Origin: Escherichia coli
GTDB lineage: Bacteria > Pseudomonadota > Gammaproteobacteria > Enterobacterales > Enterobacteriaceae
DNA: 64,000 nucleotides
Direction: 5' to 3' (one strand)
Assembly (NCBI RefSeq): GCF_013315695.1
Contig: NZ_CP054353.1
The position numbers and the translations under genes were made by a program. The notes under the pieces were generated by a model. It saw only the letters and a list, made by a program, of their open reading frames with translations. It made no database searches and had not been told where the DNA came from. This document shows positions 17,158-55,609 of this stretch, piece after piece; within the stretch, counting starts at the first letter, position 1, and every line of letters begins with the position of its first letter.

Positions 17158-17205
17158 ATTAGCAACAAGCGGAACATCACCTCGCACGGGGTGATGTTCA
17201 CAAAA

Positions 17206-17379
17206 TCACATTATTTTGATTTTGACATCATAACTTTCAAGCCCGGTCATTTTTTCTCGTGCGGTGAAGCGAATTTCAGAGACTTCTTTCCCTGTATTCT
17301 TGTTCAGTTCGGCGATTTTTTGCGCGATAAAGTCAGCGATTTCCGTTTCGGCTTGTTTTTTTAACTCTTCAATATTCAC
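17206..17379 (-). CDS. gnsA: GnsA small protein, 57 aa (below ORF-track cutoff)
   Basis: Reverse-strand translation (V/M)NIEELKKQAETEIADFIAQKIAELNKNTGKEVSEIRFTAREKMTGLESYDVKIKIM, GTG start. Confidence 0.8.
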   Translation of the reverse strand: MNIEELKKQAETEIADFIAQKIAELNKNTGKEVSEIRFTAREKMTGLESYDVKIKIM

Positions 17380-17599
17380 TGTTAACCTCTTCTGGTCTTA
17401 AATGACAGCAACACGCCAGTAAGGTGTTGGTTCCCGGTACCCTGGTCAGGTAAGAAATGTTATAAGCCATCTCCCCGAAAGATTCAATAATCAACAGGTT
17501 ATCGCTTACTATACATACAACGTTGAAGAAAAATAAGGCAGATATAAAAAAGGCTCCACGAGGGAGCCTGATATTATTTTGTGAAATCCAGCGGCGCAT
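17369..17599 (-). CDS. ymcE: Small predicted protein YmcE (76 aa); existence as a real gene is uncertain
   Basis: Internal Met of ORF 17369..17632 gives MRRWISQNNIRLPRGAFFISALFFFNVV... Confidence 0.5.
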   Translation of the reverse strand: MRRWISQNNIRLPRGAFFISALFFFNVVCIVSDNLLIIESFGEMAYNISYLTRVPGTNTLLACCCHLRPEEVNSEY

Positions 17600-17772
17600 G
17601 CTCAGTGCGTATTTGCAGCGCGACGTTATCAAAGGTGATCATCGTCGATTTACAAAAAATACACTTTGCCCCTAAAGGATTTCGCTCCGTCACATCGAAT
17701 GCCGATGTGCGGTACTGTGAACCATGACAACATGGACAGCGGAAATGGAGATGTTGAGTAATAACGGCAACC

Positions 17773-17985
17773 TTAGAGCGTAACAACGTTCGCTGCCGCG
17801 GGACCACGTTGCCCCTGCTCAATAGAAAATTCAACTTTCTGATTTTCGTTCAGCGTGCGGAATTCATTGCTCTGGATGGCGGTGAAATGGACGAAAACGT
17901 CTTTGCTGCCATCATCAGGAGTGATAAAGCCAAAACCTTTATCTGCGTTAAACCATTTTACTAAACCAGTCATTTTATTAGACAT
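17773..17985 (-). CDS. cspG: Cold-shock protein CspG
   Basis: 70-aa [26 protein letters not shown]... with cold-shock domain RNP motifs. Confidence 0.93.
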
Positions 17986-18270
17986 ATTTTACTTCCTTCA
18001 TTTTGGGCCTTTCGGCAAACAGGGCTTTAATACAGAAACTACTTAGTGTTCAGGAGAGAGACTCAAAAGAAGGGGATAATGCCTGATAATGAGAACTGCT
18101 TTAGTAAACTACTTTGTATGCTGTCTGTCTTTCAAACCGACGCAGCTATTAACGCATGATAATTGAGATTAAGCAAATTTTATTTTAGCCGTCCGGCGGT
18201 CTTAAATATCGCTGGCTTTATTTTATTAACCCCGTATAGTGCAGCGCAGTATTTTCAGTAAGGAATTTGT

Positions 18271-18483
18271 TTGTCCCGTAAAATGACAGGAATTGTCAAA
18301 ACCTTTGATCGCAAAAGCGGCAAAGGATTCATTATCCCCTCCGACGGTCGTAAAGAAGTCCAGGTCCATATTTCCGCATTCACTCCCCGCGACGCAGAAG
18401 TGCTTATACCAGGATTACGCGTGGAATTTTGCCGCGTAAATGGCCTGCGAGGACCAACAGCGGCAAATGTTTATTTGTCTTGA
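18271..18483 (+). CDS. cspH: CspA-family protein CspH
   Basis: 70-aa [29 protein letters not shown]..., TTG start; divergent from cspG. Confidence 0.9.
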
Positions 18484-19781
18484 TGGAGAGCGCACGCTGG
18501 TATGCGTGCTTCATTCACGATTTGCGTAAAACCTGCCAACGAACACATGCCCTGCGCATTTCGCTCTTCACATCCTGCCAGGGTCAGTTTCACCTCTCCG
18601 GGCGGCGTATTTAATGACAGCGGCGTTTTATCACGCATCTGCTGTAAAGTCTGGAAGACCAGCGAAACCTGAATCCAATGGCTGTTATCGCTTAGCCTAC
18701 GCCAGCGTTCAAACACCAGTTCCCCCCCTGGCGGTGTGTTATCCGGCTGACCTGGAAGCGTCCAGTTGAGCTCCAGTGCGCCGCCGAGATTTGCCAGATT
18801 AGTATCGTGTCCGGCGATAAACAGCACTGAAGTGGGTAATGTCACACCATACACCTGTTTTTGCAGTGGATGGGGCGTCAACGCTGTCATGATCAAATCC
18901 AACAACGGGGTGGCGCGGCTGCGGGCAACCTCTGGCGTGCGTTGTAGCAAATAAAACTGCGCGTTATGCAGGCTTAGCAAGGTGTTCCACTGGTGTGAAT
19001 CGGTGATCCTTCCCCACCCCGGCTCCGGCATTCCCTGTGCTTGTTGCAGGAGAAATATCTCCGTAAGCATTGACGCTAGGCTTACCGCACCGGTTAATGA
19101 GACATTGTCGGCGCTCACCTTGAGTTCCGATGGTAATGCCTGCGTTAATGAACAGCTTTCGTCCTGTTTCTCACGGTTAAGGCACAAGTTTGATTGCGGA
19201 AAATTAAGCACCCGTTCCAGTTCGCGAAACGCCGTTTGCCGATGCCCGGTAAAGTCAGCAATTGACCCTCCTGCCCTGCTGAGGATCGCGTCAGTCACGT
19301 TCGCATTATCCAGTTGGCAAACGCCAGTTTTTAGAGGATTAAATAACGGATCGGGACTGGACGTATCTGCCTGGGTATGTACGGTTATTGCACAGTCAGG
19401 TGCCAGCCCGGCGGCGAAGGCTTCGCCTGTTTTACGGGTACGCTCGTCGACATCAGCAATAATCGCGACCTGACCAGGCTGCGGGCAGCCCTTTTTCGCC
19501 AGCAATCCGTCAGCCACCAGACGCTGGCGTTGGTAATGTCCAAGATAAGCGATTAGCTCACCACCGCGCGGTGTCAGCCAACCCAGTTTTACCGGCCAGG
19601 TTGGCCATGCGTCTGGGGTGACATCCTGCATCAGTTGCGTGGCCTTGGTTGGAGCACGCACACCATGACGACTGACAATCACCACACTTTCCAGCTTCAG
19701 CTCCGGCTCACTCTGAGCGAATGCAGATTGCGGGGTGAACGGAATCAGAAGAGATAAGAATGGGATTAAGATCGCTTTCAT
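18471..19781 (-). CDS. appA: Periplasmic phytase / acid phosphatase AppA with a variant C-terminus
   Basis: Start at [22 protein letters not shown] signal peptide; RHGVRAP active-site motif; ends ...[13 protein letters not shown]; 3' end overlaps cspH by 13 bp. Confidence 0.93.
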
Positions 19782-19860
19782 CGATATGTTTCCGCTTTTC
19801 ATATCTGACATTATTGATTGCCTGATGCGATGCTAATGCGCCACATCAGGCTTACGTTCG

Positions 19861-19953
19861 TTAACTTTTCAGACGCGGGTCCAGCCATACCAACACAAGG
19901 GTGGAGAGCGAACACATCAACAAAATGCCGACGAACCAAAGTAAATACCACAT
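19861..19953 (-). CDS. appX: Cytochrome bd-II accessory small membrane protein (30 aa, below cutoff)
   Basis: Reverse-strand translation MWYLLWFVGILLMCSLSTLVLVWLDPRLKS between appB and appA. Confidence 0.75.
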   Translation of the reverse strand: MWYLLWFVGILLMCSLSTLVLVWLDPRLKS

Positions 19954-19965
19954 TGTTCCTGCTCC

Positions 19966-21102
19966 TTAGTACAGCTCGTTTTCGTTACGGCGGAGAGTTT
20001 CTGTCGTCATGCGTCCCCACATTTTGTAGTAGCTCCAGAGAGTGTAGAGCAACACAATAGGCAAAAATATCAGCACGATTACCAACATAATGCTCAGCGT
20101 CAGCTGGCTGGAAGTGCTGTCCCACAACGTCAGGCTGGAGATTGGACTCACGCTTGACGGCATGACAAAGGGGAACAGCGTGATGCCTGCCGTGAAAATC
20201 ACGCCAAATTGCATCAATGATGCCATCAAAAATCCCCAACCCGGGCGACCACGATAAATCGCCATCACCGTCAGCAATGGGCAGAAGAACCCCAGCAGCG
20301 GGAAGATCCACAAAACGGGCGATTCGACAAAATTATTCATCCAGGCACCAGGTAGCACTGCCACCAGTTTCATTAACGGATTGGAAGGACCGTTAGCATC
20401 CTGGGCGAGCAGTACAAAGCCATCAATACCGACCCACAGCCAGTAACCCGCCAGCAAAAAGCACAGCATCACCAACAGTGCAGCCCGTTTAGTCGCCAGC
20501 TGTGAACGCAGATGAATCACACCAACAGTTTTCAGTTGTAACCAGACGCCACCTTGCAAAATCACCATCCCAAGACTGAGCAATCCACACAATAAAGGGA
20601 ATGGCGTCAGCAGTTGCCAGAAGCTGCCGAGATATTCCACGCGTAATTGCGGTGTGAAGGCAAACGGCACACCGAGCAGCAAGTTGCCGAATGCAATACC
20701 GAAGACTACCGGCGGCACCAGACTGCCGATGACCAGTCCGGCATCCCACATTTTACGCCAGCGTGCATCGGCAATTTTTCCGCGATAATCAAAGGCCAGC
20801 GGGCGGAAGAACAGCGAGCACAGCACCAGAATCATCGCCACATAAAAGCCGGAAAACGCCGCTGCATACACTCTGGGCCAGGCGGCAAATAATGCCCCAC
20901 CTGCGAGGATCAACCAGACCTGATTGCCTTCCCAGTGCGCGCCAACGCTGTTTATCACTATCCGACGTTCATCATCATTACGCGCCACCAGCGGCAGCAG
21001 ACAGCCGATCCCCATGTCAAATCCGTCGGAGACCATAAAGACCACCAGGATCACGCCAATCAGCAGCCACCAGATGAAGCGCAATGTTTCATAATCAAAC
21101 AT
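19966..21102 (-). CDS. appB: Cytochrome bd-II ubiquinol oxidase subunit II
   Basis: 378-aa polytopic membrane [23 protein letters not shown]... Confidence 0.95.
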
Positions 21103-21113
21103 GATTTTCTCCT

Positions 21114-22658
21114 TTACCCCTGTTGCTGCGTCGGTTGTTCACTCTGCATCGCGCTCGGCCCCAGACGGGCATATTTCTGCATCAGGTAGACTTCGGCGAT
21201 TAAGAACAGGGTGTAAAGCCCTACGATCATGATCAGTGAGAAAGCCAGTTGTCCTGTGGTTAAGGCGGAGTGTGCGGAGTATGTCGGTAAGATATCCTGT
21301 ATCGCCCACGGCTGACGACCAAACTCGGTCATAAACCACCCGGCTTCAATCGCAATCCACGGCAGCGGCAAACTCCAGAGCGCCATTTTCAGCACCCAGC
21401 GATGCTGGTCGATTTTGCAACGCAGCGTCTGGACAAGCGCAATCAGCATCACCAGTAACAGCAGAGAACCACAGCCCACCATGATGCGGAAACTCCAGAA
21501 TACCGGCGCAACCTGAGGTATCGCGCCACGCATCGCCGCCTGGTACTGTGCGGCTGTGACATGATTCATATCCGGCGCATAGCGGGAGAGCAACATGCCG
21601 TAACCCAGGTCGCCTTCCAGCTCCCGGAATGCCTGCAACACATGCGGCTCACGATTGCCTTGCGATATTTCCTGCATTAACAGCCAGGCCATACGTCCGC
21701 GTTGCAAGCGTGGGTAGGTTTCAGCCATCAAATTCTTCAGACCCGGCACGGGTTTATCTAATGAGTGAGTGGCGAGGATCCCTAGCAGCGCGGGAATTTT
21801 GATGGCAAAGGCGTTACGCTCTTGATCCTGTTCCGGCCAGGCAACCACATGGAACGGTGCAGGTGCAGGTTCTGTTTGCCACTCCCCTTCCATCGCCGCC
21901 AGTTTTACCGGTTGTACTTGCGCGACTTCATACGCAGAACTGTCTCCGAGTTGCAGCGTACCGATAATCGCCAGAGTACCGAAGACGGAACCGATGGCAA
22001 ACGAGCGTAATGCGACATCGCGCTCCCGTCCGCGCAGTAAATACCAGGCGCTGATCGCCATAATAAACATGGCCCCGGTCACGCATCCCGCCATTACGGT
22101 GTGCACAAATTTCACCTGGCTGACCGGGTTAAAGACCAACTCGCTGAAACTGGTCATCTCCATACGCAGGGTGTCGATATCAAAATGCGCACCGGTCGGG
22201 TATTGCATCCAACCGTTGGCATTCAATATCCACAATGCAGAGAGATTTGAACCGAACGCCACCAGCCACGTCACCAGCAGGTGCTGGTATTTATTCAGCC
22301 GTTGCCAGCCGAAGAAGAACAGCCCGACAAAGGTGGATTCGAGGAAGAAGGCCATTAATGCTTCCATTGCCAGCGGTGCGCCAAAAATATCGCCCACATA
22401 GTTGGAATAGAATGACCAATTAGTACCAAACTGAAACTCCATGGTCAGGCCGGTAGCCACGCCAAGAGCAAAGTTGATACCGAAGAGCTTACCCCAGAAG
22501 CGCGTCATATCGCGGTAGATTGTTTTGCCGGTGACCACGTAAATGGTTTCCATGATAGCCAGCAAAGAAATCAGCCCCAGGGTAAGGGGTACAAATAAAA
22601 AGTGATACAGCGCGGTCAGAGCAAACTGCCAGCGCGATAAATCAATGACATCCCACAT
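21114..22658 (-). CDS. appC: Cytochrome bd-II ubiquinol oxidase subunit I
   Basis: Starts [31 protein letters not shown]-track start is 2 codons upstream. Confidence 0.95.
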
Positions 22659-28685: not shown

Positions 28686-28773
28686 GGAAGTGTGGCCGAG
28701 CGGTTGAAGGCACCGGTCTTGAAAACCGGCGACCCGAAAGGGTTCCAGAGTTCGAATCTCTGCGCTTCCGCCA
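28686..28773 (+). tRNA. serT: tRNA-Ser (UGA anticodon)
   Basis: 88-nt sequence GGAAGTGTGGCCGAGCGGTTGAAGG...TTCGAATCTCTGCGCTTCCGCCA with long variable arm and encoded CCA. Confidence 0.95.
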
Positions 28774-44461: not shown

Positions 44462-44492
44462 TAATAATCAGACAGAGTATAAAAAGGCGAAA

Positions 44493-44519
44493 CCTCCGCA
44501 ATGCGGAGGTTTCTTTTTA
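44493..44519. terminator. Bidirectional terminator between fabA and rmf
   Basis: Hairpin cctccgc-aat-gcggagg followed by tttcttttt. Confidence 0.7.
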
Positions 44520-44530
44520 AAGAGACAGAA

Positions 44531-44698
44531 TCAGGCCATTACTACCCTGTCCGCCATGGCTTCTCGCCAGCCTCCCAGCCATTGTGACCTTTGATTCAGC
44601 GTCTGATAGGGACACATTTCTTTTGAGCGTCCGGCGATGCCGGCCTGATAACCACGTTGATGTGCCCGTTCCAGGCGATCTCGTTTTTGTCTCTTCAT
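44531..44698 (-). CDS. rmf: Ribosome modulation factor, 55 aa (ORF track shows a wrong-frame 65-aa ORF here)
   Basis: Reverse-strand translation MKRQKRDRLERAHQRGYQAGIAGRSKEMCPYQ... Confidence 0.92.
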   Translation of the reverse strand: MKRQKRDRLERAHQRGYQAGIAGRSKEMCPYQTLNQRSQWLGGWREAMADRVVMA

Positions 44699-44953
44699 GC
44701 CTCGTTTCCCTCATACTGGTTTCTGGTGGAAAAGAAAACAGTGATTACTAAATGTGCAATCACAGTTAAGCAATACCGCGAATCATAACTGCCGTCAATG
44801 CGCAAAATTCACGCCACTGTCATATTTGTGAGCTACACGGGCATGTCGGTTGTACAAAAAATGTGAAGAGGAACAACTTTTTCCGCAAGTTAGAAACAAA
44901 AAAACCGCCTCAGGCAACATACCGGAGACGGTTATATTTACAAATCTTTATGA

Positions 44954-54488: not shown

Positions 54489-55499
54489 TTAGATATGGGT
54501 AACGATTTCTTTAATCAGCGGCGGACCTTTAAAAATAAAACCAGAATAAATTTGCACCAGTGAGGCCCCCGCAGCAATCTTTTCACGCGCAGCGATAACC
54601 GAGTCAATGCCGCCAACACCGATGATCGGTAAGCGACCGTTTAATTCCTGTGACAAGCGGCGAATAATTTCTGTGCTTTTTAACTGAAGCGGACGACCAC
54701 TTAAGCCACCGGTTTGATCACAATTTTTCATTCCCTGAACCAGAGAACGATCGAGCGTGGTATTGGTTGCAATAACGCCATCAATATTATGGCGAACTAA
54801 ACTATCGGCAACCTGGATCAATTCTTCTTCAGAAAGATCCGGCGCGATCTTCACTGCGATCGGCACATATTTATGGTGCATCGCTTGCAAATCATTTTGC
54901 TTATTTTTAATCGCGGTTAAGAGATCATCCAGCGCTTCACCATATTGCAGTGTGCGTAATCCTGGGGTATTTGGCGATGAAATATTGATGGCGATATATC
55001 CCGCATAGGCATAGATTTTTTCCATACAAATCAGATAGTCATCTTTACCCTGCTCCACCGGCGTATCTTTATTTTTGCCGATGTTAATACCCAGAACGCC
55101 GTCATAATGGGCTTTTTTTACGTTCTCTACGAGGTTATCAACGCCAAGATTATTAAAGCCCATACGGTTGATCAAACCTTCGGCATCTACCAGACGAAAG
55201 AGACGCGGCTTGTCATTACCTGGCTGTGGACGTGGCGTGACGGTACCGATCTCGATAGCTCCAAAACCCATCGCGCCTAACGCGTCAATGCACTCCCCGT
55301 CTTTATCAAGACCGGCTGCCAGACCAAGCGGATTTTTAAACGTCAGGCCCATGCAGTTAACAGGTTTCGCAGGCACTTTCTGCCGCACCAGTGCTTCAAA
55401 CGGCGTTCCGGTAATACGGCGTAATTGCTGAAAAGTAAACTCATGAGCGCGCTCTGGATCGAGCTGGAAAAGGGCTTTACGAACGAAGGGGTAGTACAT
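54489..55499 (-). CDS. pyrD: Dihydroorotate dehydrogenase (quinone)
   Basis: 336-aa product [21 protein letters not shown]... Confidence 0.97.
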
Positions 55500-55609
55500 G
55501 AACTCTCCTGGATTCCCGGTGTGCAAACCGGGGGCGTATTATGTGCGAGTTCGGACCAAAAGGGAATTGACCTGTGGCAAAAAAAGCGCAAACGTTTTCC
55601 GAGCCTGTT

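Follow-up and report, generated by a model that had tools for sequence, protein, structure and literature searches.

Ribosome modulation factor (RMF) binds the 30S subunit beside the 3′ end of 16S rRNA, where residues R3, K5, R8, R11 and R15 contact the rRNA, and with S1 in a compacted form it masks the anti-Shine-Dalgarno sequence; in stationary phase it acts with HPF to pair 70S ribosomes as hibernating 100S dimers (bioRxiv 10.1101/382572). AppX is the third subunit of the cytochrome bd-II oxidase, a single transmembrane helix that packs on AppC helices 1, 5 and 6, lends stability to the haem b595/d site and makes the dimer contact (PMC8585947). Over-produced GnsA leads to more unsaturated fatty acids in membrane lipids (bioRxiv 10.1101/2024.03.27.586906, citing Sugai 2001 and Rock 1996) and suppresses fabA6(Ts), secG-null and (p)ppGpp-deficient fadR defects (bioRxiv 10.1101/2024.03.27.586906). 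YmdF is a disordered, two-repeat KGG/con-10-type general stress protein without which biofilm architecture and drug tolerance are not normal; the titles of papers on KGG-repeat/con-10 proteins point to induction by stress or in stationary phase (RpoS). The genes for all four proteins, gnsA, appX (cbdX), rmf and ymdF, are already well characterised in E. coli, and finding them in another strain in itself brings no new biology.

Identification of four small genes

The window, that is the whole 64-kb stretch of DNA analysed, is a segment of the E. coli chromosome in reverse-complement orientation relative to approximately 997-1069 kb of K-12. The PGAP CDS features of NZ_OZ547117.1, which has 5 mismatches to the window up to 61.6 kb, were used as the annotation reference. 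An earlier note had claimed that four small protein genes of the window were missing from, or wrongly drawn in, a mechanical track of ORFs with a cutoff of 60 aa. The four genes are:

1193-1366, minus strand: ymdF, 57 aa, ATG start, GGAGG 6 nt upstream (PGAP WP_001273658.1; K-12 b4518)
17206-17379, minus strand: gnsA, 57 aa, GTG start, TGA stop (PGAP WP_001019197.1; K-12 b4517)
19861-19953, minus strand: appX (cbdX, formerly yccB), 30 aa, ATG start (PGAP cbdX WP_000270305.1; K-12 b4592)
44531-44698, minus strand: rmf, ribosome modulation factor, 55 aa, ATG start, monocistronic (PGAP WP_000828648.1; K-12 b0953)

All four intervals coincide exactly with PGAP CDS coordinates in the near-identical NZ_OZ547117.1, and the coordinates, lengths and start codons given in the earlier note were correct. 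Its sole inaccuracy was the omission of the strand. Only the minus strand gives clean ORFs, with neither frameshifts nor premature stops in any of them; a plus-strand reading was rejected because stop codons occur in each of the four intervals. The translations had also been said to match known proteins exactly, and comparison with the RefSeq CDS of K-12 MG1655 bore this out: there were 0 amino acid differences for all four proteins (100% identity) and 0-2 nucleotide differences per gene, every one of them synonymous.

Among 5426 complete E. coli genomes, none of the four genes was found in fewer than 5414; each protein exceeded its Pfam gathering score, and a Shine-Dalgarno sequence is located 6-9 nt upstream of each start. 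Solved structures are available for three of the four proteins: PDB 4XO1/4XO2 for GnsA, 7OSE/7OY2 for AppX within cytochrome bd-II and 6H4N/4V8G for RMF on the ribosome. Overall, the four minus-strand intervals are almost certainly the known small genes gnsA, appX (cbdX), rmf and ymdF. That they were absent from the track or mis-drawn in it comes only from its minimum length and from its taking the first start that follows a stop.

gnsA and the genes upstream of it

GnsA matched the Pfam family GnsAB_toxin (PF08178) over 1-54 of its 54 positions with 122.3 bits (cutoff 27). An NCBIfam scan found no model for this protein, which is covered by Pfam. The Shine-Dalgarno sequence AAGAGG ends 6 nt upstream of the GTG codon, and the ATG of gnsB, the paralogue in the Qin prophage, aligns with this GTG. 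The two proteins are 67% identical, and comparison of gnsA with gnsB gave an omega of 0.17 in frame versus 1.2-1.8 off-frame. The features of this region are:

17773-17985, minus strand: cspG, cold-shock gene (PGAP CDS), heading the cspG-ymcF-ymcE-gnsA gene string
17574-17762, minus strand: ymcF, 62 aa, CxxC zinc-ribbon-like, annotated ATT start; drawn in the track as an 86-aa ORF with a TTG start
17551-17569, minus strand: intrinsic-terminator-like hairpin and U-run, 4 nt past the ymcF stop, within ymcE and upstream of gnsA
17369-17599, minus strand: ymcE (sfa), 76 aa, adjoining and overlapping gnsA from upstream; drawn in the track as an 87-aa ORF with a TTG start
17191-17364, plus strand: decoy ORF of 57 aa, an antisense mirror opposite gnsA

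An Rfam cspA thermoregulator match (157 bits) covers 17719-18141 on the minus strand. The ATT start of ymcF is conserved in its paralogue ynfQ; a search of a literature library on ymcF found nothing useful. ymcF (62 aa, ATT) and ymcE (76 aa) are two more genes with wrong starts in the track, and these had not been mentioned in the earlier note. The antisense ORF at 17191-17364 was rejected as a gene on account of its omega of 1.65 and of extra stops in the gnsB paralogue.

The names given to this region in databases suggest a function other than modulation of lipid composition, namely a type II toxin-antitoxin system in which YmcE is the antitoxin and toxicity the main role of GnsA. Pfam has the families GnsAB_toxin and YmcE_antitoxin (PF15939), PGAP names GnsA 'addiction module toxin', and ymcE-gnsA is among listed E. 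coli toxin-antitoxin pairs, with a crystal-structure paper cited there. The arrangement also fits such a pair: the two genes are small and co-directional, the putative antitoxin comes first, and the first 11 nt of gnsA overlap the end of ymcE, as in translationally coupled genes. However, gnsB, whose product is so similar to GnsA, has no ymcE-like neighbour and is preceded by ynfR and ynfN instead, which weakens the label; at this one paralogous locus examined (gnsB, Qin) the toxin family was not found to travel with a cognate antitoxin family. The ymcE segment is the sole part of the cluster that is not conserved and does not align between the gnsA and gnsB loci, and it has an intrinsic terminator inside it. 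Both differences from K-12 in ymcE (2/2) are non-synonymous whereas both in gnsA (2/2) are synonymous, although this is a very small sample. Finally, over-expression of gnsA from a plasmid rescues growth defects and causes no growth block (bioRxiv 10.1101/2024.03.27.586906). This rescue, seen in one study, does not suggest strong toxicity and speaks against the toxin-antitoxin reading. The evidence for the 'toxin' label that databases attach to GnsA is thin, and we consider it unlikely that GnsA acts primarily as a toxin.

The hairpin within ymcE is, with the conserved ATT start of ymcF and the absence of a ymcE-like gene next to gnsB, among the more noteworthy side results. Its dG is -12 kcal/mol with a z of -3.6, and an equivalent hairpin with a T-run is present 3′ of ynfQ in the Qin prophage. 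It is known that CspA-family proteins are transcription antiterminators, so cold-induced CspG could open the terminator and switch on GnsA, which would in turn raise the level of unsaturated fatty acids. That gnsA, and likewise gnsB, is mainly expressed by read-through of the conserved terminator located after the csp/ymcF-like pair, within annotated ymcE, is a speculative suggestion which we would not expect to hold. If it were true, read-through would constitute a direct circuit from cold shock to membrane fluidity, there would be reason to doubt that 'YmcE' is a protein, and the toxin-antitoxin label would be wrong. A search of a literature library on cold induction of gnsA found nothing useful. 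A sigma-70 consensus scan detected no convincing promoter for ymcE-gnsA, rmf or ymdF, and is uninformative here since these genes are stress-regulated.

The start of ymdF

YmdF contains two KGG repeats and scored 67 bits against Pfam KGG (PF10685; cutoff 20.4). NCBIfam has no model for this protein according to our scan, the coverage again coming from Pfam, and a PDB search found no relative of it. For ymdF the sigma-70 scan is uninformative with respect to sigma-S promoters. The adjoining features are:

1118-1138, bidirectional: intrinsic terminator with an 8-bp stem, common to convergent ymdF and rutG
1193-1396, minus strand: decoy ORF of 67 aa, the longest ORF carrying ymdF, with a wrong upstream ATG start

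It had been claimed that some genes appear in the track with a wrong start, and ymdF is indeed present there solely as this 67-aa ORF. Should the upstream ATG at 1396 be the real start, the product would have 67 and not 57 aa, and the 10 further codons, beginning ATGATG, are open. However, the GGAGG located 6 nt before the annotated ATG falls within the supposed extension, and K-12 curators and PGAP alike use the 57-aa start. A natural one-repeat allele of 35 aa in strain GF43, formed by an exact in-frame deletion of a 22-codon repeat, provided a further comparison. In this strain 4 substitutions fall in the 30-nt extension upstream of ymdF, with 3 or more of them altering an amino acid, against 2 in the 108-nt CDS, both synonymous; the Shine-Dalgarno sequence is kept. 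The position of the Shine-Dalgarno sequence and the GF43 substitution pattern led us to reject the longer form, which is very improbable as the real product of ymdF.

appX and rmf

The surroundings of these two genes contain the following features:

19966-22658, minus strand: appC-appB, the two large cytochrome bd-II subunits (appC 21114-22658, appB 19966-21102)
19818-20060, plus strand: decoy antisense ORF of 80 aa covering appX
44517-44714, minus strand: decoy ORF of 65 aa overlapping rmf in a different frame
44489-44513, bidirectional: intrinsic terminator with an 11-bp stem, common to convergent rmf and fabA

appX follows appC-appB directly in one operon, of which it is the third cistron, separated from the appB stop by a gap of 12 nt and preceded by AGGAG 8 nt upstream. 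Its product, MWYLLWFVGILLMCSLSTLVLVW, forms one hydrophobic transmembrane helix, in which L4, L5, L11, L12, L16 and L19 are the leucine-zipper contacts of the dimer. All contact residues named in PMC8585947 are present (M1, L4, L5, V8, L11, L12, S15, L16, L19, V22 and W23). AppX scored 45.4 bits against Pfam YbgT_YccB (PF08173; cutoff 26.2) and 80.8 bits against the NCBIfam CbdX equivalog (cutoff 57); with the CydX equivalog the score was 18.9 against a cutoff of 31.6. As the CbdX equivalog was passed and the CydX equivalog failed, AppX is of the bd-II and not the bd-I type.

RMF, MKRQKRDRLERAHQR, scored 79.6 bits against Pfam RMF (PF04957; cutoff 27.9) over positions 1-52 of the 53 in the profile, and 92.1 bits against the NCBIfam equivalog (NF011162; cutoff 40). 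The gene was found in 5425 of 5426 complete E. coli genomes. All five residues of the basic N-terminal helix that make contacts with the 16S rRNA backbone (R3, K5, R8, R11 and R15) are present. Being 100% identical to the RMF of PDB 6H4N, the RMF of the window would be expected to bind 30S and, with HPF, to form 100S dimers. In the track the place of rmf is taken by the overlapping 65-aa ORF, a case of the wrong frame as the earlier note had said.

Small ORFs and the 60-aa cutoff

At 57, 30 and 55 aa, respectively, gnsA, appX and rmf are all below 60 aa, as had been pointed out, and are excluded from the mechanical ORF list on length. An audit of the 60 complete annotated CDS in the window showed that those shorter than 60 aa are exactly gnsA, appX, rmf and ymdF. 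The earlier list of small genes was therefore complete, and no further annotated genes below 60 aa were found in the span in either the PGAP or the K-12 RefSeq annotation. The broader claim, that any automated annotation relying on the track would miss these genes, holds for a naive longest-ORF track, in which three of them are dropped and one is mis-started, but the four genes were each called by PGAP in the records that were examined. The start of the longest ORF differs from the annotated start in 22 of the 60 genes. Lowering the cutoff is no remedy, because the window contains 423 ORFs of 30-59 aa (88 of 50-59 aa and 335 of 30-49 aa), so that approximately 420 spurious ORFs would be gained for 4 real genes.

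Such an abundance of short ORFs in 64 kb, together with the presence of a 57-aa ORF exactly antisense to gnsA, might suggest that some or all of the four genes are chance ORFs as well, but the probability of this is close to nil: the proteins match curated ones exactly and score above curated cutoffs, three structures (GnsA, AppX and RMF) have been solved, mass spectrometry of purified bd-II identified AppX (PMC8585947), deletion of ymdF causes a phenotype that complementation reversed, and purifying selection in the gnsA/gnsB comparison is confined to the annotated frame, the structures and the frame-specific selection already refuting the idea. Length alone is insufficient to set the four genes apart from chance ORFs; it is the identity to curated proteins, the profile scores, the structures, the Shine-Dalgarno sites and the purifying selection that do so. 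With some 420 spurious ORFs per 4 real ones, small proteins need evidence from homology, ribosome-binding sites and conservation. The value of these data is one of quality control only: when a longest-ORF track is cut off at a fixed 60 aa, 4 of 60 genes here are lost or appear only with a wrong start, and the lesson that a 60-aa cutoff hides genuine small proteins is a familiar one.

Comparison with known systems

rmf does not differ in any respect from its K-12 counterpart (b0953): the nucleotide and protein sequences are identical, pqiC is located upstream, fabA is convergent and the rRNA-contact residues are the same. Nor was anything different found for ymdF relative to b4518; the protein is identical, there is 1 synonymous nucleotide difference, and the gene, which is monocistronic and has a terminator of its own, encodes two KGG repeats. 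Its KGG-repeat relatives include the paralogue yciG and Pseudomonas PA2146. appX is identical to K-12 appX/cbdX (b4592) in both nucleotide and protein sequence, occupies the same place as third cistron and keeps all of the dimer-contact leucines. The etk-etp-gfc cluster, which in K-12 follows appA, is absent downstream of appX in this strain.

gnsA encodes a protein identical to that of K-12 (b4517), with 2 synonymous nucleotide differences and the same GTG start and overlap with ymcE, so that here too nothing is different. Its locus and that of gnsB in Qin have a parallel layout of csp, ymcF-like gene, terminator and gns. The two differ in the start codon, which is GTG in gnsA and ATG in gnsB, and in the genes immediately upstream, ymcE in the case of gnsA and ynfR-ynfN in the case of gnsB.

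Reading frames of the four small genes

Analysis of this E. coli stretch identified four short genes, all of which are read from the minus strand.

1193-1366, minus: ymdF, ATG start, TAG stop, 57 aa
17206-17379, minus: gnsA, GTG start, TGA stop, 57 aa
19861-19953, minus: appX, ATG start, TAA stop, 30 aa
44531-44698, minus: rmf, ATG start, TGA stop, 55 aa

On this strand each interval is one unbroken ORF from start to stop, with no frameshift or premature stop codon; plus-strand translation meets stop codons inside all four. The earlier note had placed genes of these lengths at these positions, which proved accurate except that it omitted the strand. The window is in reverse-complement orientation to K-12 MG1655 (~997-1069 kb), and up to 61.6 kb it differs by only 5 mismatches from 1500090-1564089 of NZ_OZ547117.1 (isolate AF3; blood culture, UK). 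PGAP features in the AF3 record (gnsA, cbdX, which is appX, rmf and ymdF) have exactly the same coordinates.

The claim that the translations match known proteins was also borne out: none of the four has an amino acid difference from its K-12 MG1655 RefSeq CDS. All nucleotide differences are synonymous, and each gene starts and stops on the codons of its K-12 counterpart, the GTG of gnsA included.

Evidence for the four genes. Order of entries: K-12 CDS; nucleotide differences from K-12; Shine-Dalgarno motif and its distance upstream of the start; Pfam match (curated cutoff); occurrence among 5426 complete E. coli genomes, annotation being present in the records listed; solved structures.
gnsA: b4517; 2; AAGAGG, 6 nt; GnsAB_toxin, 122 bits (27); 5414; PDB 4XO1/4XO2
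appX: b4592; 0; AGGAG, 8 nt; YbgT_YccB, 45 bits (26); 5418; PDB 7OSE/7OY2, within cytochrome bd-II
rmf: b0953; 0; GAGGG, 9 nt; RMF, 80 bits (28); 5425; PDB 6H4N and 4V8G, ribosome-bound
ymdF: b4518; 1; GGAGG, 6 nt; KGG, two repeats, 67 bits (20); 5416; none found in a PDB search

AppX and RMF also have NCBIfam equivalog matches. The identity of all four genes is already known; the observation is confirmed and its interpretation supported.

ORF length alone is no evidence for a gene, since the window holds 335 ORFs in the 30-49 aa range and another 88 in the 50-59 aa range, as well as a 57-aa GTG ORF (17191-17364, plus) exactly antisense to gnsA and equal to it in length. The latter was rejected as a mirror artefact, with an omega of 1.65 and stops in gnsB, the Qin prophage paralogue of gnsA. 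GnsB is 67% identical to GnsA, its ATG aligns exactly with the gnsA GTG and the Shine-Dalgarno site is kept. Nei-Gojobori omega for the pair is 0.17 in the annotated frame versus 1.2-1.8 in the off-frames.

Audit of the ORF track

As the earlier note had reported, gnsA, appX and rmf are absent from the mechanical longest-ORF track, each being the longest ORF of its own frame but shorter than 60 aa. A wrong-frame ORF of 65 aa (44517-44714) shadows rmf, an antisense ORF of 80 aa covers appX, and ymdF is drawn solely as a 67-aa ORF (1193-1396) from a wrong upstream ATG. Exactly these four of the 60 complete PGAP CDS in the window are below 60 aa, so the list of small genes is complete; the K-12 RefSeq annotation of the span, curated small proteins included, holds no further CDS below this length.

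Wrong starts are found window-wide: the longest-ORF start lies upstream of the annotated one in 22 of the 60 CDS. Examples are ymcE (87 versus 76 aa annotated) and ymcF (86 versus 62 aa), both within the span of the earlier note, fabA (238 versus 172 aa), yccX (163 versus 92 aa) and torS (954 versus 914 aa, annotated start GTG). The 86-aa ymcF is a TTG ORF, drawn by an ORF finder limited to ATG/GTG/TTG starts.

ymdF

This gene is a standalone unit that has a strong bidirectional terminator (1118-1138) in common with convergent rutG. In E. coli strain GF43 (locus L006, 370-477) ymdF carries an exact 66-nt (22-codon) deletion between two GAAGCAGGTAAAAAAGGTGG direct repeats, by which one KGG repeat is lost and a one-repeat, 35-aa YmdF results. 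Only two substitutions, synonymous in each case, fall in the remaining GF43 CDS, against four in the 30 nt of the 67-aa extension, where GGAGG is kept. The 67-aa start was rejected on this concentration of substitutions and the retained GGAGG, a comparison of sequences which supports the 57-aa start. Repeat number is polymorphic, the one-repeat allele being seen in one strain, GF43.

Deletion of ymdF in E. coli impairs biofilm formation and raises susceptibility to peroxide and antibiotics 10- to 100-fold; ymdF and Pseudomonas PA2146 cross-complement (PMC9262955).

appX and rmf

The third cistron of appC-appB-appX(-appA) encodes a 30-residue membrane-buried helix packed on AppC helices 1, 5 and 6, which stabilises the haem b595/d site and makes a leucine-zipper-like dimer contact; mass spectrometry of the purified enzyme detected this subunit (PMC8585947). 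Every residue named in that study is present in the AppX of the window.

Downstream, the convergent genes appA and cspH share 13 bp at their ends (18471-18483). K-12 has ~9 kb (etk-etp-gfcEDCBA and IS1D) between these genes. Because this segment is absent from the window, appA ends in ...ACALHQDK at 436 aa (432 aa in K-12) and cspH stops at TGA (TAA in K-12). The contiguous arrangement occurs in only 1680 of 5422 genomes.

Standalone rmf has a strong bidirectional terminator (44489-44513) in common with convergent fabA. RMF occupies a 30S cavity, contacting the 16S rRNA backbone through R3, K5, R8, R11 and R15; it pins the 16S rRNA 3′ end, blocking the SD/anti-SD duplex, and stabilises S1 in a compact form; together with HPF it gives rise to hibernating 100S dimers (bioRxiv 10.1101/382572). 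All five contact residues are carried by the RMF of the window.

Other features of the window

Four gathering-level Rfam matches were found.

6958-7036, plus: naRNA4 (REP-type nucleoid-associated RNA), between cbpM and torD
17719-18141, minus: cspA thermoregulator, 157 bits, covering the cspG 5′ UTR and CDS
28686-28773, plus: tRNA-Ser (serT)
55494-55567, minus: PyrD leader

A full-length IS1 (768 bp, 61629-62396) is 99% identical to K-12 IS1D, in opposite orientation. The otherwise near-identical AF3 has ~987 bp at this place. Through the replacement, elfA is lost together with the 5′ end of elfD, leaving the elf fimbrial operon of the window strain without its major subunit and promoter.

The cspG-ymcF-ymcE-gnsA string

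Over-expression of gnsA increases 16:1 and 18:1 fatty acids and allows (p)ppGpp-deficient fadR mutants to overcome their cold-sensitive growth (bioRxiv 10.1101/2024.03.27.586906, citing Rock 1996 and Sugai 2001). The gene is the last of the string cspG-ymcF-ymcE-gnsA. A hairpin of canonical form resembling an intrinsic terminator (17551-17569, minus; GGCUCC-CUCGU-GGAGCC followed by U6; dG -12 kcal/mol, z -3.6) begins 4 nt past the ymcF stop, and therefore lies inside annotated ymcE, upstream of gnsA.

The 62-aa ymcF (17574-17762, minus; CxxC...CxxC) has a non-canonical ATT start, annotated in PGAP and K-12 and kept in its Qin paralogue ynfQ (66% aa identity); each lies 10 nt behind its own csp gene.

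Pfam, PGAP and PMC8484670 use toxin-antitoxin naming for ymcE/gnsA. The csp, ymcF/ynfQ, terminator and gns modules can be aligned with the Qin prophage locus (L007), and the ymcE segment (17369-17599, minus) is the sole part of the string with no counterpart there (5784-6255), so that gnsB stands without a ymcE-like partner. This, together with the non-toxic behaviour of plasmid-borne gnsA (bioRxiv 10.1101/2024.03.27.586906), weakens the naming. YmcE differs from K-12 by A27V and L66H, both non-synonymous, while both gnsA differences are synonymous. Judged from these alignments, the missing Qin counterpart and the non-synonymous differences make it doubtful that YmcE is an obligate 'antitoxin'.

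Speculatively, the arrangement suggests that cold shock may lead to read-through of the terminator into the gns genes. The parallel Qin string is cspI-ynfQ-(hairpin + T-run)-ynfR-ynfN-gnsB, in which the hairpin and T-run after ynfQ are equivalent to those after ymcF.
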